This document shows positions 2 through 17,743 of a stretch of DNA of 64,000 bases, in pieces. The notes under the pieces are model-generated. The model was not told the DNA's origin. It ran no database searches and saw nothing but the letters and a program-made list of their open reading frames with translations. The position numbers and the translations under genes are program-made. Within the stretch, counting starts at the first letter, position 1; every line of letters starts with the position of its first letter. Origin of the DNA: Dehalococcoidia bacterium (GTDB taxonomy: Bacteria > Chloroflexota > Dehalococcoidia > Lucifugimonadales > JAGWBF01); assembly GCA_965116325.1 (NCBI GenBank), contig OZ220675.1, positions 449,138 through 513,137 of the forward strand. The letters run 5' to 3'.

Positions 2-1258
2 GATCTAGCACAAGAATACGGGCCTGTTTTTGCGATCGATCCTCCCTTTGTGAAACCAATGATCTTCTTAGCAGGTCCGAACACAAACCGGTGGGTGCAT
101 AGGCAAGGGCGTATGCACCTGAGAGCCAAGGACTACTTCTCCGACTTCGAGAAAGTATATGGGGCCTCGGGAGTAATGCCTTCTTTGGATGGCGCCGATC
201 ATTTCCGGATGCGGAAGTCCATGTCGGCGGCGTATTCGCGCGGGAGACTGGAAGGGCAGCTGAATATCCTCTACCACCATGCACGGAAGCATATGTCAGG
301 CTGGACGGTTGGAGAATCTCTACCCGCAACTAGGATGAGCCGGCTGATGATCAACGAACAGCTCTCGCCTCTATTCATCAGCGTTGACTCCCAGGACGTC
401 ATCGACGACCTCATAAAGTACAAAGAGAGAGCGTTGATGGTCCATATCATGAAAATGATGCCCAAGTTCATGCTCAACACTCCGAGCATGAAACGTCGGG
501 CCAAAGCCGTTGATACGCTCCTCGAACGGGTACAGAGCACTCACACACCCGCCCAGCGGGCCGATGCTCCGCGGGACCTAGCCGACGATTGGCTCAGCCT
601 TCACACGAGCGACCCGCAGTTCGTGCCGGAAACTACTCTTCGATTCCAGCTCGCGGCAGCTCTGATAGCAAGCGTGTACCTCGGCGATGCCCTGAGTTTC
701 GCCATCTACGCAATGGCCTCGCAGCCTGAGCTATACGGCAGGATCCAGGATGAAGCCGATGCCTTGTTTTCGGACGGGGACCCGGCGGGCGAGGAATTCA
801 ACCTGACTAACATCGACGTCACCCATCGCTTCCTCATGGAATGCCTGCGCATGTACCCCATCGTCCCCATGTCTATCCGAAACGTGATGAACTCATGCGT
901 GGTGGAAGACTACGAGCTGCCGGTAGGGTCGCGTCTCTTCATCGCGACCACGGCCTCTCATTATATGAGCGATGTCTTTCCAGACCCATTCACCTTCGAC
1001 ATAGATCGCTATCTACCTCCGCGCAACGAGCACCATAGCCCCGGGTATGCGCCCTATGGGCTGGGCACTCACACATGTCTAGGGTCCCAGTGGATGAATC
1101 TGCAGCTGGCGGCCAACGTGCTGATGATTGCACATCACTTCAACATCAAGGTGGACCCCGAGAACTATAAGCTAGGTTTCAACCCTATCCCGTCAATGAA
1201 GCCGAACAGGAAGCTGAAATTCCGCATTGCCGAAAAGAGGCGGGAAATAAGCGTCTAA
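2..1258 (+). CDS. cytochrome P450 (5' end outside window)
   Basis: The frame is open from base 2; DLAQEYGPVFAIDPPF precedes the listed GTG at 50, so the gene is truncated by the window edge. K-helix ExxR (ECLRMYP) and heme-thiolate loop YGLGTHTCLG lie near the C-terminus. Confidence 0.85.
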   Translation, partial: DLAQEYGPVFAIDPPFVKPMIFLAGPNTNRWVHRQGRMHLRAKDYFSDFEKVYGASGVMPSLDGADHFRMRKSMSAAYSRGRLEGQLNILYHHARKHMSGWTVGESLPATRMSRLMINEQLSPLFISVDSQDVIDDLIKYKERALMVHIMKMMPKFMLNTPSMKRRAKAVDTLLERVQSTHTPAQRADAPRDLADDWLSLHTSDPQFVPETTLRFQLAAALIASVYLGDALSFAIYAMASQPELYGRIQDEADALFSDGDPAGEEFNLTNIDVTHRFLMECLRMYPIVPMSIRNVMNSCVVEDYELPVGSRLFIATTASHYMSDVFPDPFTFDIDRYLPPRNEHHSPGYAPYGLGTHTCLGSQWMNLQLAANVLMIAHHFNIKVDPENYKLGFNPIPSMKPNRKLKFRIAEKRREISV

Positions 1259-1296: not shown

Positions 1297-2349
1297 TTAA
1301 AGGGGTTTGCGGGCAAGGAAACAGTACAGCGGCGTAAATATCCCGGCCCTACCCCCCTCCACATAGGCCCTAGCGGTCCGGTCCAGCATCCCTATGACAT
1401 CCGCAGAGCCACGGGGACATATCCCAAACGCCCCGGCCATCTTGAATGCCACCCTGAGCATCTGGCGTCCAAAAGGACTCCTTCGCAGGGCGCTCCCCAG
1501 GGTTCCGCCTTGGCTTTCCATGGGCTTGTACCACGGCGTGGCCAGACCGTTCTCATCGATGGACCGGTCCCTTGCCTCAATGACTTGGAATCCTGCCCGC
1601 TCGAGGTCCCGGGGCACCTCATCCACCGTTGCGATGTCCTTGAGCGCAATGCCTTGCATAAGGCCCCGCTTGATGGCTTGGTGTCGCCTGTCTCCGGGAT
1701 CGAACTTATCCGTCATGCACATCTCCTGACCCCAGAAGAGGGCACCGGGTTTCAGCACGCGATAAATCTCGGTGAAGGCGCCCACCTTGTCCGGGGCGTG
1801 ACACGTCGATTCGATAGCGTATCCCCGGTCGAAGGTGTCGTCAGCTATGACATCCATGTTCATGAAGCTGCACGCCAAGTAGTCAACCATGTGGTCGATG
1901 CCCGCCTCGGCATTCAACAATTTAGCCTTGTCCAGCTGAACATTGCTGTAATTGACCCCTACTACCCTGACGCCAGCCTCCCTGACAACGCGGCGCATCG
2001 GGCCGCCGATCCCACAACCTACATCGATGACCTCCATACCCTCGCTCAGCTCCAGCTTGGAAATCATCAATCGCTGGTGCCGGATCTGGGACTCCTCCAG
2101 GCTCTCCAGGGGCGAAAGAGGCGCAAAGTGAAGGGATTCGCTCCAACCGAACACCATGAACTCGCTGCAAAGGTCATAGTATTCTTTGACGGTTCCAGCG
2201 TGATCATAGTCAGCAGAGTCGCCATCCATACCATGCGCTCTGTCCATCCATCCATCGAATCTTCTCACTCGACGGTGGACATCCGACCCACGATAGTCTT
2301 CTTTGAGCCCCTGGGATAGTTTACGGAGTTGCATTAAACCCTTTCCCAC
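1297..2349 (-). CDS. sterol 24-C-methyltransferase-like SAM methyltransferase (ERG6/SMT1 type)
   Basis: SAM motif I is VIDVGCGIGGP. Several blocks match yeast Erg6 as I recall it: YYDL..FGWSESLHFAP, YAIESTCHAP, EIYRVLKPG, MTDKFDP and the C-terminal GIFTPLYCFLARKP (Sterol_MT_C-like). The start lies 2 nt after the stop of the upstream MMPL gene. Confidence 0.8.
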   Translation of the reverse strand: MGKGLMQLRKLSQGLKEDYRGSDVHRRVRRFDGWMDRAHGMDGDSADYDHAGTVKEYYDLCSEFMVFGWSESLHFAPLSPLESLEESQIRHQRLMISKLELSEGMEVIDVGCGIGGPMRRVVREAGVRVVGVNYSNVQLDKAKLLNAEAGIDHMVDYLACSFMNMDVIADDTFDRGYAIESTCHAPDKVGAFTEIYRVLKPGALFWGQEMCMTDKFDPGDRRHQAIKRGLMQGIALKDIATVDEVPRDLERAGFQVIEARDRSIDENGLATPWYKPMESQGGTLGSALRRSPFGRQMLRVAFKMAGAFGICPRGSADVIGMLDRTARAYVEGGRAGIFTPLYCFLARKPL

Positions 2350-2351
2350 GA

Positions 2352-4829
2352 TTAGCTCTGCTCCCGTTCATGTCGGTTGTGCACATCCTCTATGGCCACA
2401 TCAAGGTCAGTCCATATCTGCTCCACCATGGAGCGGAGCCTCATGTTCTGGTAGGCACCCCAGACCACCATGGCAGGCAGCACCAGCAGAATGGCCACTA
2501 TGAGGGAATAAACGATGGTAATGGTCGCCGTGATGCCGAATTGCTGGGACGCCAGCAATGGTGAGGCAATCAGAACACCGAATCCGAAGGCTGTTGTGAG
2601 CGCGGAGCCCAGCAGCGCCGAACCCGTGGTTGCCAGCGTCTGAATGGCCGCCCTCTCCGGATTGCGCATCCGGGCGAACTCCTCCCGGTAGCGATGGATG
2701 ATGTGGATCGTGTAGTCCACCCCTATCCCTATGGACAGGGCTGTGATGATGGACGTGATCAGCGTGTAGGGGATGCCCAGGAGAGCCATCGTACCCAGTA
2801 CGCTAATGAGGACTAGCACGATGGGGCCGACGGCAACGAACCCCAGCGCAGGCTGGCGCAGCGTCACCCAGAAAAAGACCGCTAGGACGACGAAGGCCAC
2901 GGCAATGGTGGTGCCGATGGCTTCCGTTTGGCCGCTCTTGATCTGGTCTGTGACGGTAACCGCGACTATGGTCTCCGAGGTCACCGTGACCGCGCTGTCG
3001 TCCCCTTGCCAGAGGGCCTCTATGTCCGCCTGGAGCATCCTCGATTCCACAGGGTCGTCCTGGAATGTCGGGAACTGGAGCAGCATCGTATCGACGCCAT
3101 TGGGGTTGTTGATCAGGGAGTGCGCCAGGCTGGGTTCTCGTGCGATGAGCTTATCGACAAACTCCTGCATCAGCTCCGGGTGCAGCTGCAAATCAGAGGA
3201 GGCTTCCGTGAATAGGGCAGCCAACTCAGGGTCATAGTTGTCACCCGGCTCTCCGCTGTCGTTGATCCAGTCCCGTGCGGAAAGCTCGAAGGACCCCTGA
3301 ATCGGACCTGCAGCCGCGGGCGGACGGGTAGCTTCATCTTCGAATGCATTCGTAATGTCCCGTAGATTGAGGAGTGTGCGGCTTTCCGTGACTTCTGCCT
3401 TGATCAGCAAACTGGCAAGCTCAGTCGAGCCACCGACCGATGCTTCCAGCGTGTTCATGTCCTCCAGAACACTCCCACCTCTAGGCAGGACATCCTGAAT
3501 ACTGAACTCCGACTCCAACCCGGTCGCAGCATACCCAAGGGCAACCGTTGCAAGCAAAACTGCGACGAGGCTGGGCACCGGCCTGCGGGTCACCCATCTC
3601 CCTAGGAGCTGGGCCGCCTGTGGAATGCCGGGGAGGGCGTTTGAGATGGGCCGAGCGGGAGACAGAGCACCGCGGGCTTCCCGCCTCCGGTCGATGATCA
3701 TCCGGGCAGCAGGTAAGAGGGTTAGCATGACGATCAGGCTCATGCCTACGCCCAACCCCGCGACGATGCCGAAGTCGCCCACAACCCCGATGGGCGAGAA
3801 CAGGGTGGCCAAGAGGCTGACGATGGTCGTGACGGCAGCCAAGGTCAGGGGGACTGTAACGGTTCGCAGTCCGTTCCTGACTGCTCCTACCACGGGCTGC
3901 CCCTCTACTCGCTGTTCCCGGTAGTGGGAGACCGTCTGGATCGCATAGTCAACCGTCAGGCTGATAAGGATGACTGGCACCATAGCAGTGAGGGAGCTGG
4001 GAGGCCCTATCAGACCTATGGCGTTGGGGCCAAGCCAGCCTTCCGCCCCGATGATCCAGACCAACGAGATAATGAGTCCCCCCAGAGTGAGCAGCATGTC
4101 GGAAAGAGTGCGGGTGAAAAGCAGGAGCAGGGCCGCAATTAGTAGCAGGGCAAGGCCGACGAGCGGCGCCATGCCGCTTTCCGTCGCTTCCTTGTACTCA
4201 TCCTCGATGACCACTGGGGACAAGCTGCTGACATCCAGCGACCCCTCATGCTCCACGGCAAGCTCGTTGATGCTACGTTCAGCATCCTGAATTCGATCGT
4301 CGCCCGTATCCCGCAGCCGTATGTTGCCAATGGCGACCATGGTCCCGTCCGTATCGGTGCCGGTCAGGGCAGACAAGGCGCCCTGAATCTCCGGGATGCT
4401 GCGAACAGAGTCAATCTGCTCCTGGGTAATCGACCCAAGGTCGTCCCATTGGAGCGCAGCGCTGATAATGGACGAGGGCGCTATGACTGCATTCGACGGC
4501 GCCAGCAGTTCGCTTACGCCTGGATCGCTGACGGCGTCATTGATCAGGATAGCCATCTGGGAGAGGCCCTCAGGTGTGAGAGGATCTCCTCGGAAGAGCA
4601 ATGTTACGACCCTGATGTCGCCCGAGTCGCTGAAGGACTCTTCGATTTCGCCGGTCGCTTCGGCGATGGCATGTCCGGGAGGAAGGAAGGCTATGTCGGC
4701 CCCCTCGGTTGGCGGCGCGCGCCGGGCAGCACCTGCGGCCAGCACGACGGTGACCAAGAGGAGGACCAGGATCGTGACGTATGGACGGGCTGTGACCAGC
4801 CAGCTCAACCGATCAAGTAGGTTGTTCAT
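2352..4829 (-). CDS. RND-superfamily MMPL/HpnN-like lipid exporter
   Basis: 825 aa with two hydrophobic multi-helix bundles, each preceded by a large soluble loop. An MMPL/SSD-like GVDYTIHIIHRYREE lies in the C-terminal bundle, and the N-terminus is a typical MMPL anchor helix. Confidence 0.8.
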   Translation of the reverse strand: MNNLLDRLSWLVTARPYVTILVLLLVTVVLAAGAARRAPPTEGADIAFLPPGHAIAEATGEIEESFSDSGDIRVVTLLFRGDPLTPEGLSQMAILINDAVSDPGVSELLAPSNAVIAPSSIISAALQWDDLGSITQEQIDSVRSIPEIQGALSALTGTDTDGTMVAIGNIRLRDTGDDRIQDAERSINELAVEHEGSLDVSSLSPVVIEDEYKEATESGMAPLVGLALLLIAALLLLFTRTLSDMLLTLGGLIISLVWIIGAEGWLGPNAIGLIGPPSSLTAMVPVILISLTVDYAIQTVSHYREQRVEGQPVVGAVRNGLRTVTVPLTLAAVTTIVSLLATLFSPIGVVGDFGIVAGLGVGMSLIVMLTLLPAARMIIDRRREARGALSPARPISNALPGIPQAAQLLGRWVTRRPVPSLVAVLLATVALGYAATGLESEFSIQDVLPRGGSVLEDMNTLEASVGGSTELASLLIKAEVTESRTLLNLRDITNAFEDEATRPPAAAGPIQGSFELSARDWINDSGEPGDNYDPELAALFTEASSDLQLHPELMQEFVDKLIAREPSLAHSLINNPNGVDTMLLQFPTFQDDPVESRMLQADIEALWQGDDSAVTVTSETIVAVTVTDQIKSGQTEAIGTTIAVAFVVLAVFFWVTLRQPALGFVAVGPIVLVLISVLGTMALLGIPYTLITSIITALSIGIGVDYTIHIIHRYREEFARMRNPERAAIQTLATTGSALLGSALTTAFGFGVLIASPLLASQQFGITATITIVYSLIVAILLVLPAMVVWGAYQNMRLRSMVEQIWTDLDVAIEDVHNRHEREQS

Positions 4830-4960: not shown

Positions 4961-6037
4961 TCATTGCGCAGGAACGCTCGTGGCATCCCGCAGCAGATGT
5001 TGCGATTCCTCCCCGGCCTCATAGAACTGGGCGCAATATGCTCGAAAGGGCATGATCTCCCCATCGGAGCGGCACAGGCGTGGGCGGGACCGGTAGCCCT
5101 TAAGGCTCCAAATGGCCATGTCCTGCCTAACGTCGTTGTCCTGCTGGGCCGCCACAAACCGGTTCATCAAGGGTGCACGGAACCTTGTTGGAAGGAAACC
5201 CAACCCCATAGTCCATCGCTTGGGGTTACGTATCTCCTTGACCTGAGTAGCCAGGGATAGGTCGATGTGGGTTCCATCGACGGGCGTGGCGAGCACCCAG
5301 AGCCTCAAATCCATTCCTATGGAACGCTCGTGAATCTGGACGAAAGAGTAGCCCAAGCCAAAGATGCGGGTCTTGGCGGAGATGTCCATGGTGAAAGTTG
5401 CAACCTTGGCAATCTTGCGGATGGTCTTGAAATCGAAATTGCTCTCCAGATATGGCCCGTCCACGTAGATGCGCCCGACGCGGCTTACGCTGTCATAGCC
5501 GTGAACGTAACGCAGGTGTGCCAGATCCACCGAGTTCTCCGTGGTGTCCTGGGGATGACCCGGGAATCGCATCGTCCTGACGCGTATGCTGCTCCAGCCG
5601 GACTGTTCGACGGGTTCGGCAGGCAGAGTCCATTGGACCGGACGTCCCCCGATGCCCCACCATGCAAAGATGAGACCAGCGATCTCCTGGGTCTCGAAAG
5701 TTCTCAGCCTGGCAGTCTTTGGGGGGTCGGCATATGGAGTAGCAACGCACTGGCCGGTGGTATCGTATTCGAAGCCGTGGAAAGGACACACAAGCTGTCC
5801 GCCCCGCACGAAACCCCCTGCGTCGGGGCCCAGGTAAGCCCCGAGGTGAGGGCAGTAAGCCTCGGCCACGCAAACGCTGCCGCTTCCGTCGCACCATGCG
5901 ACGACGTTCTCTCCCATCCAGGTCTTTGCAAGAACACCGGCCTTCAGTATGTGCTGACGGCTGGCGACAAAGTACCATCCTTCGGGAAACGCGGACGGCA
6001 GCTGCTCTTTCTCAGGCTTCCGTCGCTGGATCGACAT
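4961..6037 (-). CDS. Rieske [2Fe-2S] non-heme iron oxygenase, KshA/Neverland/SdmA-like
   Basis: Rieske ligands CPHLG...CPFHG and the mononuclear iron motif E-x3-D-x2-H-x4-H (ENSVDLAHLRYVH). I start it at ATG 6037 (ggtgaggagtctcaagcgATG). The listed 715-aa ORF extension overlaps the MFS gene in another frame. Confidence 0.8.
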   Translation of the reverse strand: MSIQRRKPEKEQLPSAFPEGWYFVASRQHILKAGVLAKTWMGENVVAWCDGSGSVCVAEAYCPHLGAYLGPDAGGFVRGGQLVCPFHGFEYDTTGQCVATPYADPPKTARLRTFETQEIAGLIFAWWGIGGRPVQWTLPAEPVEQSGWSSIRVRTMRFPGHPQDTTENSVDLAHLRYVHGYDSVSRVGRIYVDGPYLESNFDFKTIRKIAKVATFTMDISAKTRIFGLGYSFVQIHERSIGMDLRLWVLATPVDGTHIDLSLATQVKEIRNPKRWTMGLGFLPTRFRAPLMNRFVAAQQDNDVRQDMAIWSLKGYRSRPRLCRSDGEIMPFRAYCAQFYEAGEESQHLLRDATSVPAQ

Positions 6038-6150
6038 CGCTTGAGACTCCTCACCCGGATATTGGGTTTCCAATGCCTCCCGCCCATCCCTTCCGGTTGA
6101 CTGCACTCTAGCACGCCCCATTCTTGAGAGGCAATGAAGTGGTTGCCCAC

Positions 6151-7614
6151 TTAGTCGAACCTTTCTCCTTCCTCCGTCTCTTCTATCCTCATCAGAAGAG
6201 CCGGAACAATGGCGACCAAAGCGAGGAACCCGGCGATCATGAACAGGTTCTGAAAGACGGTCACCCCCGCCTCTATAAGCGGGGCCTGGGTCTCTTCGAA
6301 GGTGGGCCCGATGGTCACATGGGCGGTCAAGCTGTAGAAGCGCTCGATGCCCCACGCAGACAAGGCTGCCAAACCCAGCGCCATACCCACCATCCGAGAT
6401 GCGGTGACCAGCGAAGCCGCAGTACCCCAGTAATAGCTGGGGGCTGCGCTCAAGGCGCTGACACTTATGGGCGGGATGACCAGCCCAAACCCCAAGCCGG
6501 CGGCGGCAAGAGGCACAGTAAGCCTGACCTCCTCCACCTGAGCCTCCCAGCCGCTCATGAAAAGCAGCCCCGTGCCCATGAAGGCCAAGCCGGTTATGCA
6601 GGCCGCCCTTACTCCCGACCAACGCAGGATGTAGCCTCCCACCACCGCCCCCACCGGGATGGCGGCCGTAAGTCGGACCAGGTGGAGGGCGCTTTCCAAG
6701 GCGCTCTTCTCCATTACCGTTGCGGCCATTACAGGCACAGCCACCAGGGCAATGATAAGGGCAACTCCCACCAGGAACTGGGCGATGTTGGACGACACGA
6801 AAGCCTTTGACTGGTACAGGAAGGCCGCCAAGAGGGGGTGGGCCGATCGCCTCTCCACAATGATCAGCACCAGGACCAGGAACCCGCCAAGGGCAGCCAT
6901 CAGGTACGGGAGCACAGACTCTCCCGAGAAGATGCTCCTCTGGGACAGGGCGATGGTGAGAACGGTCAGGGCGCCGGCAAGCGCCAGGGCCCCCGGGTAG
7001 TCCATCCTGGCTGCAGGATTGGCTCGGTTCGGCAATATGCCCAGCAGCGCAATCAGGATAAAGCTCTGGGGTATGTCCAGCCAGAAGATCCATCGCCAGC
7101 CGATCCATTCTATGATGCCCCCTCCGTAGAGAGGACCCAGTACGGACCCGGCTTCCGCCGAGGCAGCCACCAAGCCCAGGGCGACTCCCCTTCTTTGCGG
7201 GGCGACGGCCGCCACGGCCAGGGCCAGGGCTATGGGCACCGTGGCCCCGCCGCCGGCAGCTTGAATAACGCGGGCGGACACTATCCAGGAGAAGTCCGGT
7301 GCTACGGCCACCAGCCCTGAGCCGATGGAGAACACTACCAGGGCCGCCTGGAACATCCTGACCCTGCCATAGACGTCGGACAGGCGTCCCGCCAGCGGCA
7401 TGGCCACCGTGTAGCTAACGAGGTACCCCACCACGATCCAAGATGCCCTGTCCAGGTCGGTGAGGGGTATCTCCAAGTCCACCATCACGCTGGGCAGGGC
7501 TGCGACCACCACTGTTTGGTCTAGGGCCGTCGAGAATACGCCCAGGCAAAGGATGGCTAAGACGGCGGTCTCTGAGGAACGCAGAGAAGCTAGCGTGGAC
7601 CTGCCGGCATTCAC
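6151..7614 (-). CDS. MFS transporter, 14-TM DHA2 type (P55/Rv1410c-like)
   Basis: 487 aa, hydrophobic throughout with about 14 helices. An MFS motif-A-like GRLSDVYGRVRM follows TM2. The gene sits 41 nt downstream of an LprG-like lipoprotein gene. Confidence 0.8.
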   Translation of the reverse strand: MNAGRSTLASLRSSETAVLAILCLGVFSTALDQTVVVAALPSVMVDLEIPLTDLDRASWIVVGYLVSYTVAMPLAGRLSDVYGRVRMFQAALVVFSIGSGLVAVAPDFSWIVSARVIQAAGGGATVPIALALAVAAVAPQRRGVALGLVAASAEAGSVLGPLYGGGIIEWIGWRWIFWLDIPQSFILIALLGILPNRANPAARMDYPGALALAGALTVLTIALSQRSIFSGESVLPYLMAALGGFLVLVLIIVERRSAHPLLAAFLYQSKAFVSSNIAQFLVGVALIIALVAVPVMAATVMEKSALESALHLVRLTAAIPVGAVVGGYILRWSGVRAACITGLAFMGTGLLFMSGWEAQVEEVRLTVPLAAAGLGFGLVIPPISVSALSAAPSYYWGTAASLVTASRMVGMALGLAALSAWGIERFYSLTAHVTIGPTFEETQAPLIEAGVTVFQNLFMIAGFLALVAIVPALLMRIEETEEGERFD

Positions 7615-7655
7615 GCTAACAACTCAGGGGGAGAATTCAGCCCCGGCATGTTCCG

Positions 7656-8405
7656 CTACTGGGAGGCTGATTCCGGGAGCTGGATATCGATGACGACGTT
7701 GGTCTCCTCGATGACGATCAACCTCCTAGTCTCCGGAGCGTCATCGTTGAAGACTTGACCTGTTATTCTCAGCTGTTTCAAGTCGTGGTCCACTTCGTCT
7801 ATCCAGAAAGACAGCATCACCGCGTGCCCGGGGTCTGTGGACGTGATCAGTTTGGAGAGGTCCTCAGACTGCAAGGAACCCTCCAGCAGGATCGTCTGGG
7901 AGCCGCCAACGGACTCCCGTCCAACTTTCCTGGCATCCTTGAGCAGGGGCACCAGTTCGCTCAGGGTAACGCCCATCCCCTTAAAGTTAAATGGAACTTC
8001 ATCCAAGGACAGGGGGAGCCACGGAGCATCCCTGGAGAACTTCATCAGGGACTGGTCTCCGACGGCCACAATCTCGATTTCGATAAACCCGAAAATCGGA
8101 GACTCCACGTCCACAGCCATCCTCATGCTGTCGGAGGCGCTGACCTCCCCTTCCACGCTCTTCAAGGTCGTGTTGAAGAACTTGGACCCCGTCTGCAGCT
8201 CGTCGGTCATCCGGAATTTCACCGAGGAGATGGAGGCTAATCTTTCCTGCGCGTTCGCAAGAAGCTCATCCACCGTCAACTCGGTGGGAGTGGGCTCTTC
8301 GCCACCTCCACACGCCGCCGCCAGCACAAACAGGCCAACTGCCAGCACGCCCATCGCAAGGTAGGACAGCTTCTTGAACGTTACGTTAAATACTTGCATT
8401 TGCAT
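7656..8405 (-). CDS. LppX/LprAFG-family lipid-binding lipoprotein (LprG-like)
   Basis: Signal peptide with the lipobox-like sequence VLAAAC-GGG. The mature domain of about 220 aa resembles mycobacterial LprG as recalled (LLANAQERLASISSVKFRMT, GGSQTILLEGSL, LSFWIDEVDHDLKQLRI). Gene order matches lprG-Rv1410c. Confidence 0.65.
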   Translation of the reverse strand: MQMQVFNVTFKKLSYLAMGVLAVGLFVLAAACGGGEEPTPTELTVDELLANAQERLASISSVKFRMTDELQTGSKFFNTTLKSVEGEVSASDSMRMAVDVESPIFGFIEIEIVAVGDQSLMKFSRDAPWLPLSLDEVPFNFKGMGVTLSELVPLLKDARKVGRESVGGSQTILLEGSLQSEDLSKLITSTDPGHAVMLSFWIDEVDHDLKQLRITGQVFNDDAPETRRLIVIEETNVVIDIQLPESASQ

Positions 8406-8722
8406 TTCTCCATCACCCTGGGGTGGAGGGATGCCAGAATCTCGCTAGGTATTATACTACCGCCCAACCCAACACACTTGCCCTAAAAGAGACTCCCAGG
8501 AACAGGAGGAAAAGGAAGATTCAGGGGGACGGCTCTGGGCGGGCATGCCCGGGGCACGCCCCATTCAGAACCTGCTGGGAGCGCCGCTATGTGCAGGGTT
8601 GACCCTCGCAACGAACCATTCACCACAAAGCCTTCACGAGATCCAGGGCCGGGAGAGCCGAGCCAGGATATGACCACCTGGCAGAGAGAAGTGCAAAAGT
8701 CTAGCTAGCTAGCTATGCAAGA

Positions 8723-8756
8723 CCACAGGGGCAGGGTATTCACCCTGCCCCTGTGG
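8723..8756 (-). terminator. perfect 15-bp-stem palindrome downstream of the 8777..10651 gene
   Basis: ccacaggggcagggt-attc-accctgcccctgtgg. There is no strong U-tract. The same 26-nt core recurs at 15442. Confidence 0.45.
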
Positions 8757-8776
8757 TTGAGAGACTCGCCAGGTTC

Positions 8777-10651
8777 TTATTCGCAGGGTTCCAGCCCCAA
8801 GCTGTTGAGGTCGTGGTCGTCCACATAGTACAAGAATCGTGGGATGCACCCTGTGAAGGTGTTGCCCGACAGCTTCAGGCTGGTCAGGGTTTCCACCTTA
8901 GCAAAGGGGGCTGGGAAAGCCCCAGCCAAGCCCACATCGGTGAGGTCCACGCCTGTCACCCGCAGGACACCATCCACAACATCTATGGAGACTCCCCTCT
9001 GCCGATCCATGCCTGAGCCGGGGTTCCACCTTGTCTGACCCACATTGCTCAAGGGAAGGACACCGTCGATGAGCGCTTCGCAGTCTATGAGCAGGTTATC
9101 ATCAACGGGATCGGCATAGATGTACACATTTACCGCATCATCGCAGAAGCCCTCGGCGGCAGCGTTGTCTGACCTTGTGCGCTCGGCAGGGTCGTCCGGG
9201 GCTACCGTGATCCTCAGCATCAGTTCATCACCAGAGGACCAGGGCTTGCTACCGACGTCCCAGGTCAGGGTGCCCTCGGAGCTGTCGCCGGTGGCTGCAT
9301 CGCCTGTGAGAGACACAGATGCCGTCCCATCCCCTGTGATCACCTCCAAGGTGTAACTATCGAGGGCGTGGTACGGGTCAAGGGACAGGGTGACGTTGCT
9401 GGCATCACCCGTGAGGGCGGTGATCGAGGTGGACACGTTGCCCACAACCACCGTGAAGTCGGTGGCACCGAGGTCGCCCGTGCTCACATCGCCCGAGCTG
9501 ATGTACCCGTCGCCGCTCCCGATTGTCTGAGGGTCAAAGAGGGCCTCAAGCACCGTCCAGGCAGGCGCTTCCTCCACCTCCACCTCCCAGTTGAGGCCGA
9601 CCAACGGAGAATCCCTGTAATCGCAGGCAAGGAAGAAGTGGGACTGGATGTAGCTCTTGAACTTGTAGGTCCCGGCCGGCAGAGGGCGGGTGTTCTCAAA
9701 GGAGAAGGTGTAGCCGTTGCTTGGGTCGGAGTCGGCATCCACCAGCCGGACCCTGAACAAGCCTGCATCTGCCCCTGTCAGCGCCCGTTTCTCATAGACT
9801 GTGTGATTCTCCCCGCCCCCATACTGGTCTACGGCTGTTCCTGCGGGTGCCGAGGAAGGCAGGGATGCGGTAATCGTATCCGGCTCCCAGGGCGTTCCAT
9901 AATAGACAGCTACGTCCCTGCCGGCCCGTTCTGTCCTGAGCGCCTGCTCCACGCAAGACTCATAGGCTGCATCCCCGTCCCCTCCCCCAATCCAAGCTAT
10001 GAGACTCTTAAGGTCGGACAGGCTGATGGTAGGGTTCCTCTCACCATAAGGGGATTGGGTTTCTATGATGAATGAGGGGTCGCTTTCTTGGGCCGACCCG
10101 CCGGCGGCCCCCCCAGCCCCGCCTGTGGCGGTTGAGGGCATCCAGACCGGATTGCGGGTCTCGATGGAGTTTCCTTCGGGAAGCGCCCCTTGGTAATCGT
10201 ACCTGCCGTCTCCCAAAGAAGTGGTGTCGGCAAAGGCGTAGCGGGGAGGTCCACCGGTGCTGCTACCGCCAACCCCCGAGTCGTCGCCTGCCGGGGCCTC
10301 CGTGACAGGGCCATCAAGGAACAGCAACGCTTCCCTGCTGTCCCACCTTGTGGTGCGCCCTGATTCGGGAGCCTCCAGGGTGAAGCGGGTCGGGCCTGTA
10401 CCCTTCAGGTACTCAACAGCATCGAAGGTCAGAGTCCCGTTCCCGGTGGACGCCAAGTTCGCCCGCACCACAATGGCGGCGGCGTGGATGCGCTCCTCCA
10501 GCGATGCGGTGGAAGCCCCGTCGTAGGAAGTGTCAATGTACATCGTGAAGCTGCCCGGCGACTGCAGATCCTCATCGGAATCCGACCCACAGCCTGCCGT
10601 TATGAGCAGCGCCAGAAGCAGAAGCATGGACCCTAGAACGTATCGCATCAC
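8777..10651 (-). CDS. secreted lipoprotein of unknown function with C-terminal LRR-cap-like motif
   Basis: Signal peptide plus lipobox LITAGC. The C-terminus LKLSGNTFTGCIPRFLYYVDDHDLNSLGLEPCE matches the C-cap of the LRR paralogs at 29.8-39.5 kb. Confidence 0.6.
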   Translation of the reverse strand: MMRYVLGSMLLLLALLITAGCGSDSDEDLQSPGSFTMYIDTSYDGASTASLEERIHAAAIVVRANLASTGNGTLTFDAVEYLKGTGPTRFTLEAPESGRTTRWDSREALLFLDGPVTEAPAGDDSGVGGSSTGGPPRYAFADTTSLGDGRYDYQGALPEGNSIETRNPVWMPSTATGGAGGAAGGSAQESDPSFIIETQSPYGERNPTISLSDLKSLIAWIGGGDGDAAYESCVEQALRTERAGRDVAVYYGTPWEPDTITASLPSSAPAGTAVDQYGGGENHTVYEKRALTGADAGLFRVRLVDADSDPSNGYTFSFENTRPLPAGTYKFKSYIQSHFFLACDYRDSPLVGLNWEVEVEEAPAWTVLEALFDPQTIGSGDGYISSGDVSTGDLGATDFTVVVGNVSTSITALTGDASNVTLSLDPYHALDSYTLEVITGDGTASVSLTGDAATGDSSEGTLTWDVGSKPWSSGDELMLRITVAPDDPAERTRSDNAAAEGFCDDAVNVYIYADPVDDNLLIDCEALIDGVLPLSNVGQTRWNPGSGMDRQRGVSIDVVDGVLRVTGVDLTDVGLAGAFPAPFAKVETLTSLKLSGNTFTGCIPRFLYYVDDHDLNSLGLEPCE

Positions 10652-10660
10652 ATCCTCCTA

Positions 10661-12376
10661 TTAGTGGTGTATTGCTGCCACTGCCCGTAGGCCGAATATA
10701 TCCTCCCTGGCGGGAAAGGCGCTGGTGTAGCCCTCGAAGTTATTGTAGCCCCCCTCCATCACACCCATCCCCAAGGGAATATGCCCGACACCTGCGGAGT
10801 GTAGGAGCTCGTGCACCAAGACCATCGGGAGATAGTATTGGGTCAGGGGGTCCTCCCGGGCCTCATTCCTGGAGCTGGTCCATTCGGTGACATCTCCAAA
10901 GTAGCCTCGCGGAGGGAACTGGATGTGCACATCCAGTAAATTGAAGTGGGGGAAGCGTGCAAGTCCTATCTTGGTGCAACCCACAGGCCTTTTGCCGTTC
11001 TCAGTCCCCCGGCAGGGCGGAAGCTTCTTATCCCCCCGGTACCCTCGCACCACCACATTCCAACCCACATCATCGGCGAAGGTGAAGCCCGTCCCTCCCG
11101 TTGTAGCATCAAGGGCCGTCTGCGCAATTCTCAGGGACTCGGCGGCTGTCGTCAGGTCCGGGATTTCAATGATCTCCCAATCGCGAGTCCAGTCTGCATG
11201 ATAGGTCACGGCGCGGTTCTTGTGATGCCAGTTCACAGGAATAACCCCGTTCACATCGAACTCGTACGTCTTGCCTGTTCTCTTGTGCTGGGCCTCAACG
11301 ACCATGCTGCCACCGGGGTACGAACCCAAAGCGCACCTGGCCAGGGTCATGCCTGTGACCTTCTTGGTCAGCCAGTCCGTCTCCGAAGAGAACCCATCAG
11401 CACACCCTTGGCCTTTCTCGATGAGGTACATTCCAGTGTTCCAAGGGTTGGTGTTCAGCTTGAACTTGAAGTCCGTGAACCTGTGGCTGAACCGGTCCTC
11501 CCTCTCATTGAGAAGGTCAAGGGTCAGAGTGGCGGGACTCTGCTCCAGCATCATCCAGCGACGGGCGCTCATATCCACAGTCCAGGAACTGTTGATGTCC
11601 AGCACCGTAATCGCTGCCTCGAAACGCGGAGGCGCTACCAGGAGAGGCACCGGAGTGTTCGCAGGTCTGCGAGTGTTCGTGGGCCTGGGAGTGTCCGTTG
11701 GGTCAGGGTCCCCATCATCGGGAGTAGCGGTCGGCCCAGGTGTGTCGGTCGGCACCGGCGTTTTCGTGGGCCTGGGCGTCGGAGTCAGTACGCAAGCGAC
11801 GCACGGCGTCGGGGGCTTAGCGGTCGGCGTCGGAGGCTCAGCGGTCGGCGTGGGCTGACACTCGCTTGTGCCAGGGCATGGGTCTTGAGTCGGCTCCGGT
11901 GTGGGTGAGGGAGTCGGTTGGCATGTCGGTGCAGTGTCCGAGGACCCGCAGGGCTCCAATGTCGGCTTCTTCTTGAACTTCACCGTTACCGAATCCGAGT
12001 TGCTGTTGTCGCAAAACTCTCCGCCACGCTCGGCAGTGACCGTGATGGTGGCTGTGTAGGTCCCTTCCGAGGTGACAGTTCTGCTCTTGCTGGTGTTCCC
12101 ATCATTCCATTCGAAGCTGTGATGCAGGAAGTGACCGCCCGGCATCGTGACCGTGGAGTGGGTGGCGCTGATCCTGGCGCTGCTCGTGGTCACATTGGAT
12201 ACCGATGCTGAGATAGTCGGCCTGGGCGGTGTTTCGCACGCCCATTTCTCCCACTCCCCGTCCCCTTCCGCCGTCACAGGCGGGGGATACAAGTCGGGTG
12301 TGGCAAGGCCGATGATAAGAAAGACCACCAGCCCTAAAAGCAAACAGGGCACACAGTCCATCCATGAAGCAGGCAC
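10661..12376 (-). CDS. membrane-anchored metzincin-like zinc metalloprotease with PKD-like domain and Pro/Thr-rich linker
   Basis: N-terminal TM helix, a long PT-rich linker, and a C-terminal HELLHSAGVGH (HExxHxxGxxH) followed by GMGVMEG, a possible Met-turn. It lies 10 nt upstream of the 8777..10651 gene. Confidence 0.6.
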   Translation of the reverse strand: MPASWMDCVPCLLLGLVVFLIIGLATPDLYPPPVTAEGDGEWEKWACETPPRPTISASVSNVTTSSARISATHSTVTMPGGHFLHHSFEWNDGNTSKSRTVTSEGTYTATITVTAERGGEFCDNSNSDSVTVKFKKKPTLEPCGSSDTAPTCQPTPSPTPEPTQDPCPGTSECQPTPTAEPPTPTAKPPTPCVACVLTPTPRPTKTPVPTDTPGPTATPDDGDPDPTDTPRPTNTRRPANTPVPLLVAPPRFEAAITVLDINSSWTVDMSARRWMMLEQSPATLTLDLLNEREDRFSHRFTDFKFKLNTNPWNTGMYLIEKGQGCADGFSSETDWLTKKVTGMTLARCALGSYPGGSMVVEAQHKRTGKTYEFDVNGVIPVNWHHKNRAVTYHADWTRDWEIIEIPDLTTAAESLRIAQTALDATTGGTGFTFADDVGWNVVVRGYRGDKKLPPCRGTENGKRPVGCTKIGLARFPHFNLLDVHIQFPPRGYFGDVTEWTSSRNEAREDPLTQYYLPMVLVHELLHSAGVGHIPLGMGVMEGGYNNFEGYTSAFPAREDIFGLRAVAAIHH

Positions 12377-12434
12377 AATTCCCTCCCGTCTAGGCCCCGG
12401 AGAGGCCTTGAGTAGCTAGGCGACGGGAGATTAT

Positions 12435-12472
12435 CACAGAAAACTTTCGGGAACTATATACTTGACGATCCT
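12435..12472. repeat. left terminal inverted repeat of the IS1595-like element
   Basis: CACAGAAAACTTTCGGGAACTATATACTTGACGATCCT. The outer 8 nt and inner 24 nt are identical to the reverse complement of 14725-14760. Confidence 0.8.
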
Positions 12473-12932
12473 AAATCGTTCCCCTAGATACGAACCTCTG
12501 AAACTCGCCCTGGTCAAAGACGTGTAGCAACAGGTTCTTTCCGGCCTGTCCCTTCAGCCACATTTCCGCCCCTTTGGAGTAGCCCCCGCCGTCCAGCACA
12601 ACGATAGTCTGGTACCCGCCTTGCTGGATGTTCAGAACCTCGAAGGGGTACTTCTCATGCACGGTCCCGCCCGATGCTTGCCACTTGCACTGAATGACCA
12701 GGGCCTTCTCCCACTTCCGGGGATGGTAGAGGATGAAATCAACGCGACGTTCTCCGCCGTAGATGTTCCGCCCAACGATGCACTGGCGAGCATAGACGGG
12801 CTGACTGAGCTCTCGCATGGCAAAGAACAAGCTAGAGGGCCATATCGGTTCATAGCCGGCTTGCTGGAGAAGGTCTTCAACGAACCGCTCCAGCTTGTTG
12901 CCCGTCCTGTTGGCCGATACCTGCCTAGCCAT
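12471..12932 (-). CDS. putative type II restriction endonuclease (PD-(D/E)XK-like)
   Basis: 153 aa. A candidate catalytic core is ERRVDFILY...ALVIQCKWQ (D...QxK variant). The start overlaps the methylase stop by 8 nt, and the stop lies inside the left IR. Confidence 0.45.
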   Translation of the reverse strand: MARQVSANRTGNKLERFVEDLLQQAGYEPIWPSSLFFAMRELSQPVYARQCIVGRNIYGGERRVDFILYHPRKWEKALVIQCKWQASGGTVHEKYPFEVLNIQQGGYQTIVVLDGGGYSKGAEMWLKGQAGKNLLLHVFDQGEFQRFVSRGTI

Positions 12933-13770
12933 AGGTCGTAATCAGCAGTTCGCTTGCTGTCCCGCGCCCGTTGGTCTTGCAGTTGATATTCCTGGGTGCA
13001 GCAACATCGTGGATGATGAAGGGTGGGTTTCCGTACAGGCTGCGCATAAGCTCTGTGTCGGCGTTTGAAACCATCACCGAGGCGCCCAGCTTGTGCCACT
13101 TCAAGACAGCGTTCCTGAGTCGCCTCTGCTCATCCTCGCCGAAGCCGTCCTTCCCATAGCCTGCGAAAGTCCCATCGTAGGGGGGATCGCAGTAGATGAA
13201 GTCCCCACCACCAGGCTCTAGCTTCTCGAAGTCTCCGAAGGTGACGGTCGCCTTGGATAGCACCTTCCCTGCTTGGCGGATGTTCTCGGCGTCGCAGATG
13301 ACGGGATTCACATACCTGCCGATGGGAACGTTGAAGGCCCCGCTCTTGTTCACCCGGTACAGGCCGTTGTAGCAGGTCTTGTTCAGGTAGATAAACCTGG
13401 CTGCCACATCTACCGCAGCCTCTAGCCCAGTCTGTTTGCGCATCTGGTAGTAGTACGCCTTCTGGTGCTTCTGCTGGTGGTGCTCCAGGGAGGCGATCAG
13501 ATCCTCGGCTCGGTTGCGGACCATCTGGTAGGTCAAGGCAAGCTCGGCGTTCACATCGGACAACCGGGCCGATGTGATACGGCTGTCCAGGGCAAAGAAC
13601 ACAGCCCCTCCACCAAGGAAGGGCTCCCAATATGTCCCTAGGTCGTCGGGCAGGCGCTGGGCGATCTCTGGAATCAGTGTCCGTTTCCCCCCCGCCCACT
13701 TCAGGAACGGCTTGGCCCTGGCCCTAGCCAAGTACGGCTTCTCCGTGTGCTCCAGGAACCTATCGAACAT
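12925..13770 (-). CDS. DNA N6-adenine methyltransferase, Dam family
   Basis: FLKWAGGKR, FLGGGAVFF (FxGxG) and the catalytic DPPY (IYCDPPYDG). Confidence 0.9.
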   Translation of the reverse strand: MFDRFLEHTEKPYLARARAKPFLKWAGGKRTLIPEIAQRLPDDLGTYWEPFLGGGAVFFALDSRITSARLSDVNAELALTYQMVRNRAEDLIASLEHHQQKHQKAYYYQMRKQTGLEAAVDVAARFIYLNKTCYNGLYRVNKSGAFNVPIGRYVNPVICDAENIRQAGKVLSKATVTFGDFEKLEPGGGDFIYCDPPYDGTFAGYGKDGFGEDEQRRLRNAVLKWHKLGASVMVSNADTELMRSLYGNPPFIIHDVAAPRNINCKTNGRGTASELLITTYG

Positions 13771-14716
13771 TGGCGATCAGCTCCTTGTAGGGTAGGTGTG
13801 CGGCAGGGAGCATCCCGCTTGTCAGAAGGGCTGTCGATTCACCGCCTCGGGCAACGTTCTGACGGAAGGAGCAGGCATCCAGGTACTTCTGCGTGTGCTT
13901 GCGACTCCACCAGTGGTGCGTTCCTACAAAGGTTCGCTTCACCAGGGACCAGAAGCTTTCAACGCTGTTGGTGGTGATGCCGTCCCTGCTGTACTCGCCT
14001 TGGGAGTGATTGATGCGGGAGAGCTTGTAGAAGCCTTCCAGGGCATTGTAGCTGTGGCTTTCGTCAGCGTTCAGATGAGAGCCGAGGGCGACGTTGCGGA
14101 TGACATGGCCGGTTACGTGCTCGGCTGTCGGGCTGGGAACCTTGTACGCTTTGACCGCCCCGCCCCTTTGCTTCATACCGAAGGCCACGGCCTTGGTCTT
14201 GGAGGAACCGAGGCCCTGCGTGCCAGAGGTCCGCTTGCTAGCGTGCTTGTTCTTCTCTTTCCCGCCGATGTAGGTGTCGTCTATTTCCACGTCGCCATCC
14301 AGCATGATGTCCACTCCCATCAAGGCTGCGGCGTTCTGGATGCGCTGGATCATGTACCAAGCCGTCTTTTGGGTAACCTTGATGTCGTGGGCTAGCTGGA
14401 CGCTGGAAATGCCCTTGCTGTGCTCCGTCACCAAGTAGACCGCTGCAAACCACTTGGGCAGCATCTTGATTGGGCTGTCGGAGAAGATGGTGCCGGTGAT
14501 GATGCGGAACACCCGCTTGCAGTCCGAGCACTTGTGCCGTATGCCGTCTGTGTAGTGCTGTATCTTCCCGCAGCTACCGCAGTGGGGGCAGAAGGCCCCG
14601 TTAGCCCAGCGCACAGCCTCAAGCTGTTGAAGGCAGGCTTCGGGGGTGCTGTACTTCCTGGTAAACTCTAGTAGGCTCACTGCTACACTCCGTTCTTGAT
14701 ATTGGGAGTATAGCAC
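13760..14716 (-). CDS. IS1595-family transposase
   Basis: N-terminal zinc ribbon CPHCGS...KCSDCKRVF, followed by an ISXO2-like DDE domain (VEIDDTYIGGKEKNKH). The stop overlaps the methylase start by 11 nt. Confidence 0.85.
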   Translation of the reverse strand: MLYSQYQERSVAVSLLEFTRKYSTPEACLQQLEAVRWANGAFCPHCGSCGKIQHYTDGIRHKCSDCKRVFRIITGTIFSDSPIKMLPKWFAAVYLVTEHSKGISSVQLAHDIKVTQKTAWYMIQRIQNAAALMGVDIMLDGDVEIDDTYIGGKEKNKHASKRTSGTQGLGSSKTKAVAFGMKQRGGAVKAYKVPSPTAEHVTGHVIRNVALGSHLNADESHSYNALEGFYKLSRINHSQGEYSRDGITTNSVESFWSLVKRTFVGTHHWWSRKHTQKYLDACSFRQNVARGGESTALLTSGMLPAAHLPYKELIANVR

Positions 14717-14724
14717 ACATTTTA

Positions 14725-14760
14725 AGGATCGTCAAGTATATAGTTCCCAAACTTTCTGTG
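14725..14760. repeat. right terminal inverted repeat of the IS1595-like element
   Basis: The reverse complement reads CACAGAAAGTTTGGGAACTATATACTTGACGATCCT. It lies 9 nt upstream of the transposase start. Confidence 0.8.
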
Positions 14761-14872
14761 GCCAGAGCTTGCCCAAAATCCACCGCCCGGATGCCGGCGC
14801 AGGCAATTGGGCGCTGGAGGATGGGTGTGCTATAGTCGGTGAGCACCGTCCACCCTACCAAGGAGGCCCCCT

Positions 14873-15412: not shown

Positions 15413-15441
15413 CTTCTAAGCTGTCCACTGAGCAAAAGAGA

Positions 15442-15471: not shown

Positions 15472-15516
15472 GACGGCCCTTCCCTTTCGGGAGCGTCGTA
15501 TCCTTTGTCGGGCTCA

Positions 15517-17737: not shown

Positions 17738-17743
17738 AGCGTC

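Follow-up and report, generated by a model that had tools for sequence, protein, structure and literature searches.

Does a bacterial chromosome of the phylum Chloroflexota carry a working sterol methyltransferase (SMT), and if so, on which lipid and with which partners would the enzyme act? The question is raised by an open reading frame (ORF) on the minus strand at positions 1297..2349 of the 64-kb stretch of DNA analysed here (the window), which comes from a sponge-associated, SAR202-like member of the Dehalococcoidia (Chloroflexota) that has not been cultured. An earlier note, made from the letters of the DNA, had described the product as a eukaryote-type sterol C-24 methyltransferase encoded beside a lipid exporter.

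An SMT-family gene in a bacterial chromosome

The 350-amino acid ORF is present as claimed and contains every motif that the note had quoted (VIDVGCGIGGP, FGWSESLHF, YAIESTCHAP, EIYRVLKPG, MTDKFD and IFTPLYCFLARKP). Its product matches the Pfam family Sterol_MT_C (PF08498) with 56.6 bits against a cut-off of 21.7 (E = 2.8e-15), the match spanning residues 287-349 and 63 of the 66 profile positions, and it also matches Methyltransf_11 (above the Pfam cut-off) and CMAS. By BLASTP the protein is 34% identical to yeast Erg6 over 332 residues (1e-67), values that lie within the definition of an SMT homologue used in PMC10070321 (BLASTP against Erg6, E ≤ 1e-50, identity ≥ 30%). The Erg6 query sequence agrees with the numbered residues of the 2025 preprint wherever the preprint states the yeast residue. 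Identity over the full length is 40% to a rice SMT1-like (cycloartenol C24-methyltransferase-like) protein. The SAM-binding Region II (D125-x-G-x-G-x-x-G-P133) is present as DVGCGIGGP, with positions that are invariant in 110-111 of 111 members of the clade described below. Furthermore, 22 of the 25 residues conserved in all in vitro-functional SMTs (Brown & Welander 2025) are kept, including DxGxGxxGP, E195, G217, W286, G333, F357 and P359. On these profile and alignment matches, which lie far beyond chance, the ORF is a genuine SMT-family gene.

CMAS or CFA synthase identity was considered and ruled out, because the CMAS match (61 bits) is partial, covering profile positions 9-215 of 273, and because the NCBIfam CFA and mycolic methyltransferase models score only 36-50 bits against cut-offs of 390-650. 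NCBIfam, which holds no SMT model, gave the protein no name, with none of its models reaching cut-off. A structure predicted from an alignment of 35 clade members had confidence too low for use (pLDDT 42, pTM 0.33).

The note had placed the gene 2 nt after the stop codon of the neighbouring MMPL gene. This spacing is literally correct for a start at GTG 2349 (the MMPL stop codon TAA occupies 2354-2352), but the likelier start appears to be the ATG at 2334, which would yield a protein of 345 amino acids and a junction of 17 nt (2335..2351, minus strand) that includes the Shine-Dalgarno (SD)-like sequence GGAAAGGG at 2346-2339. The later start is preferred because, in 89 of 113 related loci, residue 6 has a start codon (ATG, GTG or TTG) preceded by a purine-rich SD-like stretch, and start codons are seldom seen five codons earlier. 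In the closest relative (locus L113), however, residue 6 has the codon ACG and translation was called from the GTG before it, which leaves some chance that GTG 2349 is used.

The appearance of a bacterial SMT could also arise from contaminating eukaryotic DNA (of sponge or alga), from a chimeric assembly, or from a horizontally acquired gene in decay that no longer functions. It would suit such an artefact that, outside the bacteria, the nearest relatives with a name are SMTs of plants and protists, with about 40% identity, and that mobile elements lie 6-15 kb away. However, GC content is even across the window, which is filled with bacterial housekeeping genes (gyrB, ilvC, leuA, moaA and methylmalonyl-CoA mutase), and 68 of 80 genomes that were assembled independently, closed chromosomes of 2-4 Mb among them, share its junctions at this locus. 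Conservation on that scale shows that the locus is not a chimera. The reading frame is intact with dN/dS values of 0.11-0.17, and the gene is under purifying selection. We therefore give next to no credence to an artefact, which synteny and selection have already refuted. The bacterial flanks, the shared junctions and the Sterol_MT_C match bear out the note's view that an Erg6/SMT family member resides in a clearly bacterial chromosome, and neither the chimera nor the missing Sterol_MT_C match that it had named as contrary outcomes was found.

Relatives of this SMT are present in at least 309 public species-representative genomes. The clade to which it belongs is large, purely bacterial and made up of sponge-associated Dehalococcoidia, and its members share no more than 42% identity with SMTs outside it. 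A crude neighbour-joining tree shows the clade as monophyletic and nested in no eukaryotic group, a placement that also argues against contamination and for which the term eukaryote-type is a poor fit. One genome holds a clade-type SMT together with a canonical-type paralogue, suggesting that the two have non-redundant roles.

In the metagenome collection, all 32 matches fall in sponge-derived records wherever the source was identified; they come from records of A. aerophoba, P. ficiformis and S. foetidus, and the rest from records believed to be sponge-derived. The clade is thus apparently restricted to sponge samples in the collection searched. The window is also rich in LRR, RCC1 and collagen-like genes, which were counted toward the sponge association. 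None of the 32 metagenome contigs appears on the readable lists of contigs in PMC10070321 or among the readable names that the 2025 preprint gives, and to that extent the clade appears to be absent from the SMTs tested in vitro. In the literature searched, no paper contained both 'sterol methyltransferase' and 'Dehalococcoidia', and none cited the accession numbers of the related chromosomes.

Gene neighbours of the SMT and possible sources of sterol

Gene linkage was counted within 10 kb of the SMT in 80 related Dehalococcoidia/SAR202 genomes, 68 of which have the gene order MMPL-SMT-P450. Immediately upstream of the SMT, and likewise on the minus strand, is a gene (2352..4829) for an 825-amino acid RND/MMPL-family membrane transporter with a sterol-sensing domain (SSD), with Pfam scores of 148 bits for MMPL, 50.9 for Sterol-sensing and 37.1 for Patched SSD. 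It is present in 68 of the 80 genomes, nearly always in the orientation of the SMT and upstream of it. The best matches among solved structures are Patched-1, HpnN, MmpL5, Dispatched and NPC1, and the NCBIfam models HAE3, HpnN and BstA all score under cut-off. The protein thus resembles BstA of Methylococcus, HpnN and Patched/NPC1 in its RND/MMPL fold and SSD, but is far below the family cut-offs (BstA, 32 bits versus 1400; HpnN, 110 versus 752) and lacks BstB/BstC partners. For an RND protein related to HpnN, Patched and NPC1, the label 'lipid exporter' given in the note is overstated.

Convergent with the SMT is the C-terminal P450 part (~418 amino acids; 2..1258, plus strand) of a GPP34-P450 fusion gene whose 5′ part lies past the window edge. 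The P450 ORF called at 50..1258 is incomplete, its frame being open from base 2 and cut by that edge. In relatives the fusion protein is ~675 amino acids long and matches both GPP34 (93 bits) and p450 (127 bits) in Pfam, and the gene is present in 68 of 80 genomes. A CYP51 identity was tried and rejected, as the PDB matches are weak (1e-14 to 1e-17) and identity to a sponge-symbiont CYP51 is 28% over 149 amino acids. The P450 matches terpene oxygenase models weakly. A promoter and terminator scan and RNA folding of the SMT/P450 intergenic gap gave nothing over background.

Farther along the minus strand, a gene at 4961..6040 encodes a 359-amino acid Rieske [2Fe-2S] non-haem-iron oxygenase with a KshA-type C-terminal domain (Pfam Rieske 57 bits, KshA_C 74.8 bits). 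Its translation contains the motifs CPH...CPFH and DLAHLRYVH, it matches KshA structures at 1e-21 and SdmA weakly (35.7 bits), and a KshA-like Rieske gene is linked to the SMT in 58 of 80 genomes. Two more minus-strand genes are associated with the module more loosely: one for a 487-amino acid DHA2-type MFS transporter (6151..7614; Pfam MFS_1, TIGR00711 under cut-off) and one for a 249-amino acid LppX/LprAFG-like lipoprotein (7656..8405; Pfam LppX_LprAFG 29.9 bits). Each accompanies the SMT in 26 of 80 genomes, the lipoprotein gene always together with the MFS gene. In the closest relatives (loci L113, L001 and L002), an ERG4_ERG24 reductase gene directly adjoins the P450 gene, and an ERG4/24 homologue of 95% identity was found on a contig equal in length to the window's own.

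By motif scan and tblastn, neither the 64-kb window nor the 4-10 kb around any of the 113 SMT loci contained an oxidosqualene cyclase (OSC) or squalene epoxidase (SQMO) gene, and this was counted against our preferred reading that the enzyme acts on sterols. Contig OZ244816.1, the site of SMT locus L069, has squalene epoxidase and OSC genes that are followed by paralogues of MMPL and GPP34-P450. In locus L115 an MMPL paralogue follows SQMO-OSC. The OSC linked to the paralogous MMPL/P450 pair has a VSDCTAE motif and is not a squalene-hopene cyclase. In one SMT-bearing relative, SQMO-OSC lies about 0.43 Mb from the SMT. A Chloroflexota metagenome-assembled genome (MAG), GCA_002239025.1, has been reported with an OSC cluster.

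The lack of an OSC near any SMT locus is one point in favour of a substrate other than sterol, such as a squalene-like triterpene, a hopanoid, a polyprenoid or another olefinic lipid, which the neighbouring proteins would then handle. The CMAS score of the SMT equals or exceeds its Sterol_MT_C score, the RND neighbour resembles the hopanoid transporter HpnN too, and the weak P450 match to terpene oxygenase models points the same way. There is also precedent in Botryococcus, whose triterpene methyltransferases belong to the SMT family. SMT homologues with deviant residues were often inactive on the sterols tested. Nevertheless, we consider a non-sterol substrate improbable, given the sterol reductase homologue adjacent in the closest relatives, the KshA-type Rieske domain known from steroid-acting enzymes, the link of MMPL/P450 paralogues to squalene epoxidase and a VSDCTAE-motif OSC, and the 40% full-length identity to plant SMT1.

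The side-chain pocket and the proposed chemistry

Region I of the window SMT reads M81-V-F-G-W-S-E-S-L89-H-F, versus the canonical YEYGWGxSFHF (Y81-E-Y-G-W-G-x-x-F-H-F91); it departs from the consensus but retains G84, W85, H90 and F91. Among 111 clade members, Y81 is replaced by Met in 110 and F89 by Leu in 110, while position 249, Asp or Asn elsewhere, is Ile in 107, including the window SMT. Position 86 is Ser in the window SMT and, in the clade, Gly in 68 members and Ser in 39. The other SMTs, ~98 representatives, mostly keep Y81 (86), F89 (87) and N/D249. Of the 25 conserved residues, T78 has become Ser, G86 Ser and F89 Leu. Mutagenesis and docking place positions 81 and 249 facing the sterol side chain, and by alignment the clade-wide substitutions sit at residues shown or modelled to line the side-chain pocket. 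With three clade-wide changes (Y81M, F89L and 249I) and 3 of 25 conserved residues altered, the designation 'C-24' goes beyond the evidence.

Seven of 11 SMT homologues that failed on desmosterol or 24-methylenecholesterol in vitro deviated at the 25 conserved residues (Brown & Welander 2025). The frequent inactivity of deviant homologues, together with the lack of any clade member matched to a tested enzyme in the sources as available, was counted against the preferred sterol-acting reading, as were the non-canonical Region I and I249. A Chlamydiae SMT carrying G249I still yielded 24-methyl sterols, with C28 products only. In propylating (24-isopropyl-forming) bacterial SMTs, Gly249 is necessary but insufficient and Phe occupies position 81 and/or 83; the window SMT has F83 together with I249 and M81, and so lacks this signature. 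The protein retains F83, W85, H90, F91 and E195, so its machinery for carbocation chemistry appears to be intact.

These observations bear on whether the enzyme, with its remodelled pocket (M81, L89, I249 and A250), is something other than the canonical first-step C-24 enzyme. It might methylate C-26/27 or the nucleus, or take alkylated sterols as its substrate, those of the host sponge included. Side-chain-facing positions 81 and 249 are changed clade-wide where other SMTs keep Y81, F89 and N/D249, one genome pairs a clade-type with a canonical-type enzyme, and C-26 SMTs are still undiscovered. Two of the source sponges also have unusual major sterols. That of A. aerophoba is aplysterol, a 26-methylated sterol, and that of P. 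ficiformis is petrosterol, which has a cyclopropyl side chain. The nematode 4-SMT, moreover, pairs loss of the Region I aromatics with new regiochemistry (PMC6997595). Retention of F83, W85, H90, F91 and E195, the 24-methyl products of the G249I mutant, and the occurrence of the clade in several sponge hosts, among them S. foetidus, for which there is no known record of 26-methyl or cyclopropyl sterols, all speak against such a departure, and we regard it as unlikely. That the clade as a whole carries out an alkylation other than the first C-24 step, for example methylation at C-26/C-27 or the alkylation of host sterols that already bear an alkyl group, seems a long shot.

We favour, with somewhat better than even confidence, a functional SAM-dependent SMT-family methyltransferase that acts on the sterol side chain inside a conserved sterol-handling module. 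By analogy with Erg6/SMT1, the enzyme would transfer a methyl group from SAM to a side-chain double bond, canonically delta-24, via a carbocation intermediate, and the expected product would be a 24-methyl or 24-methylene sterol. The RND transporter with its SSD, probably co-transcribed with the SMT, could move sterol, in whichever direction, in the envelope. The GPP34-anchored P450 and the KshA-like Rieske oxygenase would oxidise the sterol, and the ERG4/ERG24-type reductase of the closest relatives would reduce a double bond, which may be the 24(28)-methylene made by the SMT. Sterol may be supplied by the bacterium's own squalene epoxidase and OSC, enzymes encoded in at least one relative with an SMT, or by the sponge host.

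Known enzymes and sponge sterols

The note regarded each new bacterial SMT with its genomic context as relevant. A bacterial SMT as such is not new, because such enzymes were characterised in vitro in 2023 (Brown et al., PMC10070321) and SMT1/ERG6 was reported in 2022 to be enriched in sponge-symbiont MAGs, where sterol gene clusters occur in several classes, Dehalococcoidia included (Kelly et al. 2022, PMC9531527); relatives in at least 309 genomes tell the same story. What is less ordinary, as judged by alignment, is a distinct clade with an altered pocket (Y81M, F89L and D/N249I) and at most 42% identity to other SMTs. Like the bacterial SMTs characterised in vitro (PMC10070321 and the 2025 preprint), the window protein combines Methyltransf_11 with Sterol_MT_C and comes from an uncultured bacterium, and many of those enzymes derive from the same sponge metagenomes (A. 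aerophoba, P. ficiformis and S. foetidus). It differs from them in its separate clade (~42% identity at most) and in having M81, L89 and I249 for Tyr, Phe and Gly/Asn/Asp. Its linkage is to the SSD-RND, GPP34-P450 and KshA-like Rieske genes rather than to OSC, CYP51, ERG24 or sdmAB.

With Erg6 and plant SMT1 the protein shares Region II, E195 (Region III), G217 (Region IV) and the C-terminal domain, but it lacks Y81, G86 and F89, has T78 replaced, resides in a bacterial host and is probably operonic with a transporter. The ERG24-CYP51-LSS clusters of sponge MAGs, which SMT1/ERG6 sometimes flanks, share the sponge-symbiont setting and the host class Dehalococcoidia (PMC9531527). In contrast to those clusters, the module described here has none of the core trio, the P450 is no CYP51, and the reductase found in relatives is 31% identical to the ERG24 of a sponge-symbiont cluster. 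Some members of the SMT family methylate another substrate or another position, which was also counted against the preferred reading. These are the nematode sterol C4-alpha-methyltransferase (PMC6997595) and the Botryococcus enzymes, which belong to the same family and, set beside the window SMT by description, likewise have a remodelled Region I. Unlike the nematode enzyme, the window SMT keeps F83 and W85, suggesting that it has diverged less from 24-SMTs.

The side-chain-alkylated steranes 24-isopropylcholestane and 26-methylstigmastane serve as the oldest chemical evidence for animals, an argument that hinges on which organisms make the precursor sterols and that bacterial SMTs are already known to complicate. 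If the enzyme is an ordinary 24-SMT, it adds one further member to a known class. The clade and its partners (the SSD transporter, GPP34-P450, Rieske oxygenase and sterol reductase) are clonable candidates for the making or remodelling of sponge sterols. Should the clade instead perform an alkylation other than the first C-24 step, Dehalococcoidia symbionts would be a bacterial source of 'sponge-specific' sterane precursors.

The methyltransferase gene and its start

The open reading frame at 1297-2349 on the minus strand encodes 350 amino acids from a GTG codon and carries all of the motif blocks by which an earlier note had recognized an Erg6/SMT1-type C-24 sterol methyltransferase (SMT). 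Membership in this family is borne out by Pfam, where the matches are not confined to CFA, tocopherol or ubiquinone methyltransferases: Sterol_MT_C scores 56.6 bits against a cut-off of 21.7, alongside Methyltransf_11 (58.8 bits) and a partial match to CMAS (61 bits). BLASTP aligns the protein with yeast Erg6 over 332 residues (1e-67, 34% identity), the Erg6 sequence used agreeing at every yeast residue numbered in a 2025 preprint, and the protein is 40% identical to a cycloartenol-C24-methyltransferase-like protein of rice. By the criterion of Brown et al. (PMC10070321) the protein is an SMT homologue. NCBIfam has no SMT model and every match there is far under its cut-off; no solved SMT structure was detectable by sequence, the top PDB matches being generic class I methyltransferases.

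Contamination or a chimeric assembly, which the earlier note had wished to see checked, is excluded by the even GC content of the window, the bacterial neighbours, the recurring gene order and the dN/dS values, which are 0.11-0.17 against six relatives. Neighbouring genes include gyrB, ilvC, leuA, ilvB and moaA, together with an aconitase-family (leuC-like) gene, methylmalonyl-CoA mutase and class V FBPase, and the SMT is recorded on a contig of 2,369,888 bp. Its gene order is repeated across dozens of genomes from separate assemblies, and many of these are closed chromosomes of 2-4 Mb.

Upstream on the same strand lies an RND transporter gene (MMPL, 2352-4829) with a TAA stop at 2354-2352. 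The 2-nt gap proposed earlier between the two genes holds in that a GTG stands two bases past this stop, but ATG at 2334, yielding a predicted 345 amino acids, is the likelier start because a start codon at residue 6 is kept across related loci. Among the 113 SMT-bearing loci compared, the codon aligned to this residue is ATG, GTG or TTG in 89, with a purine-rich stretch ahead of it; five codons further upstream a start is seldom seen and a stop is frequent. The sequence GGAAAGGG occupies 2346-2339 ahead of ATG 2334, and 345 amino acids is the modal homologue length. GTG 2349 may yet be the start, since L113, the closest relative, carries ACG for residue 6 and uses the upstream GTG. Whichever start holds, the SMT follows MMPL by 2-17 nt.

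Relatives in sponge-associated bacteria

When each GTDB species was represented by one genome, 309 genomes proved to encode a close relative of the SMT; the best 80 of these (71-83% identity) are without exception MAGs of Dehalococcoidia, Chloroflexota or SAR202. In 241 million metagenome records, from JGI and elsewhere, there were 32 SMT loci, with no identifiable non-sponge record among them. These fall in sets from Sarcotragus foetidus (LXNI), Petrosia ficiformis (LXNJ) and A. aerophoba (JGIcombinedJ30088, Ga0209021), in MKWU, which we take to be an A. aerophoba record set, and in Ga0209754, Ga0209543, Ga0209544 and JGI24796J26693, whose source is unconfirmed. The window is also rich in eukaryote-like proteins (four LRR, one RCC1-like and one collagen-like), and such kinds are reported to be enriched in sponge-symbiont metagenomes (PMC9531527). 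The RCC1-repeat gene and the four leucine-rich-repeat genes, of kinds typical of sponge symbionts, run along 28139-33569 and 37500-39479 on the minus strand.

The gene module and its sterol links

The window's neighbours of the SMT were compared by tblastn with the loci of the best 80 of the 309 relatives. MMPL lies within 10 kb of the SMT in 68 of the 80, nearly always upstream on the same strand, and a P450 gene does so in 68, nearly always downstream and convergent. A Rieske gene (4961-6040, minus strand) is as close in 58, and a pair encoding an MFS (DHA2) transporter and an LppX/LprAFG-like lipoprotein (6151-8405, minus strand) accompanies the SMT in 26. This pair resembles the mycobacterial LprG-Rv1410c lipid-transport pair. 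The MMPL protein has a sterol-sensing domain (SSD), its best solved relatives being Patched-1, HpnN, MmpL5, Dispatched and NPC1, and the Rieske protein has a KshA-type C-terminal domain with cluster and iron ligands intact, KshA being its best structural relative.

The P450 gene is cut by the window edge at base 1 (2-1258, plus strand). In relatives it encodes a fusion of ∼675 amino acids with an N-terminal GPP34 (GOLPH3-like) domain, found at full length in L002:11081-13120 and L113:10412-12451 (both minus strand). We know of no earlier description of such a fusion in linkage with sterol genes in bacteria. Its I-helix reads YLGDALS, without the usual acid-alcohol pair. A CYP51 identity was rejected on sequence comparison.

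Directly after the P450 gene, the three closest relatives (L113, L001 and L002) carry an ERG4_ERG24 reductase gene. A 95%-identical copy was found on the contig taken for the window's own, and the gene therefore probably lies just left of the window. The family is strongly conserved (77-100% identity over the best 120 matches); it occurs in tandem duplicate ∼6 kb from the SMT at L075:17475-19878 and L025:17468-19871, and the orthologue in L114 stands alone among unrelated neighbours. An amine-oxidase/protoporphyrinogen-oxidase-like flavoprotein of ∼460 amino acids joins the module in 33 loci, mostly beside the Rieske gene (for example L032:13179-14567 and L059:14358-15743, minus strand), and the window has none.

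The same three relatives have the NhaP-CBS antiporter gene adjoining the LprG-like gene, where the window holds ∼11.6 kb of extra DNA (8400-20000). This insert encodes secreted proteins of 624 and 571 (PKD) amino acids, a Dam-type D12 methyltransferase (12925-13770), IS1595-type (13760-14716) and IS4-type (15656-16876) transposases, and a collagen-repeat protein (18172-19029).

Neither oxidosqualene cyclase (OSC) nor squalene epoxidase is encoded in the window or near any of the 113 SMT loci. We searched with an OSC translated from a gene cluster that Kelly et al. had published from a sponge symbiont. Among the best 120 matches, too few to show absence from the window's contig, which is not one of them, is a 644-amino-acid OSC on a 3,477,165-bp contig matched to Dehalococcoidia chromosome OZ244816.1. 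That chromosome also bears an SMT locus (L069). At L115:8702-16817 (2.69-2.71 Mb of OZ244816.1), squalene epoxidase, OSC, MMPL/SSD and GPP34-P450 genes follow one another on one strand. As judged from these genes, this shows that at least one member of the SMT-bearing group has both committed sterol-synthesis enzymes. The last two genes are paralogues of the SMT-linked pair (57% and 49-55% identity), which ties that pair to sterols. A giant PKS gene lies close to this cluster, and a divergent hybrid kinase gene beside it has a 74%-identical GAF-histidine kinase-receiver-OmpR-type counterpart in the window (34838-37348, plus strand), where LRR genes occupy the corresponding upstream position.

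A non-sterol substrate for the SMT is less likely because of these ERG4/24, KshA-type and OSC links. The best-supported reading of the sequence data is that the SMT would be a functional methyltransferase of sterol side chains, working within a module for sterol transport and modification in sponge-symbiotic Dehalococcoidia and acting on a sterol that may be the bacterium's own or its host's.

A distinct clade with an altered side-chain pocket

The sponge-associated Dehalococcoidia SMTs reduce to a few representatives, at 78, 53 and 50% identity to the window protein, when a library with 50%-identity clustering is searched, and SMTs outside this clade reach at most ∼42%. Neighbours at ∼40% include SMTs of the sponge-associated Acidimicrobiia ‘Ca. 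Poriferisocius’, a rice SMT1-like protein and a protist protein. In a crude neighbor-joining tree, built without bootstraps, the clade forms a single long-branched group that is nested in no eukaryotic group.

We aligned 111 clade members with Erg6 and ∼98 other SMT representatives. The clade keeps the SAM motif and E195, G217, W286, G333, F357 and P359 (Erg6 numbering). Y81 is replaced by Met in 110 of 111 members (Tyr in 86 of the other representatives), F89 by Leu in 110 (Phe in 87) and D/N249 by Ile in 107 (Asn in 46, Asp in 26). E82 is Val or Gln (Glu in 79), G250 is Ala (Gly in 61) and T78 is Ser, Asn or Gly (Thr in 85). Positions 81, 83 and 249 govern how many times the side chain is methylated, and docked models place them within 5 Å of it (Brown & Welander 2025 preprint). 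The same work lists 25 residues common to every functional SMT, including T78, G86 and F89, from which seven of 11 inactive homologues deviate; the window protein keeps 22. By its rule, Ile at 249 would exclude propylation, because a G249I mutant gave C28 sterols only.

The main rival to C-24 side-chain methylation retains a sterol substrate and holds that C-24 and first-step specificity are doubtful because of these clade-wide pocket changes. The nematode 4-SMT is a family member that lacks the aromatic residues of Region I and can methylate at another position (PMC6997595). No clade contig matched those assayed in vitro, as far as these appear in the contig lists of PMC10070321 and among the names in the 2025 preprint.

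In one Chloroflexota genome there is a second SMT (L061:17223-18251, minus strand), which shares 40% identity with that of the window. This second protein is canonical in type (YEYGWGRSFHF), falls near the SMTs of sponge Acidimicrobiia and bears at 249 the Gly needed for 24-isopropyl formation.

Bacterial SMTs, some from the same sponge metagenomes, have been published (PMC10070321), as have SMT enrichment in sponge MAGs and the occurrence of sterol gene clusters in sponge Dehalococcoidia (PMC9531527). Homologues in public MAGs are annotated mostly as generic methyltransferases, and in the literature searched we found no earlier description of the clade-specific pocket signature or of the SSD-RND/GPP34-P450/Rieske/ERG4-24 module. 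The chief value of the clade is that it offers a well-defined target for assays the field already has.
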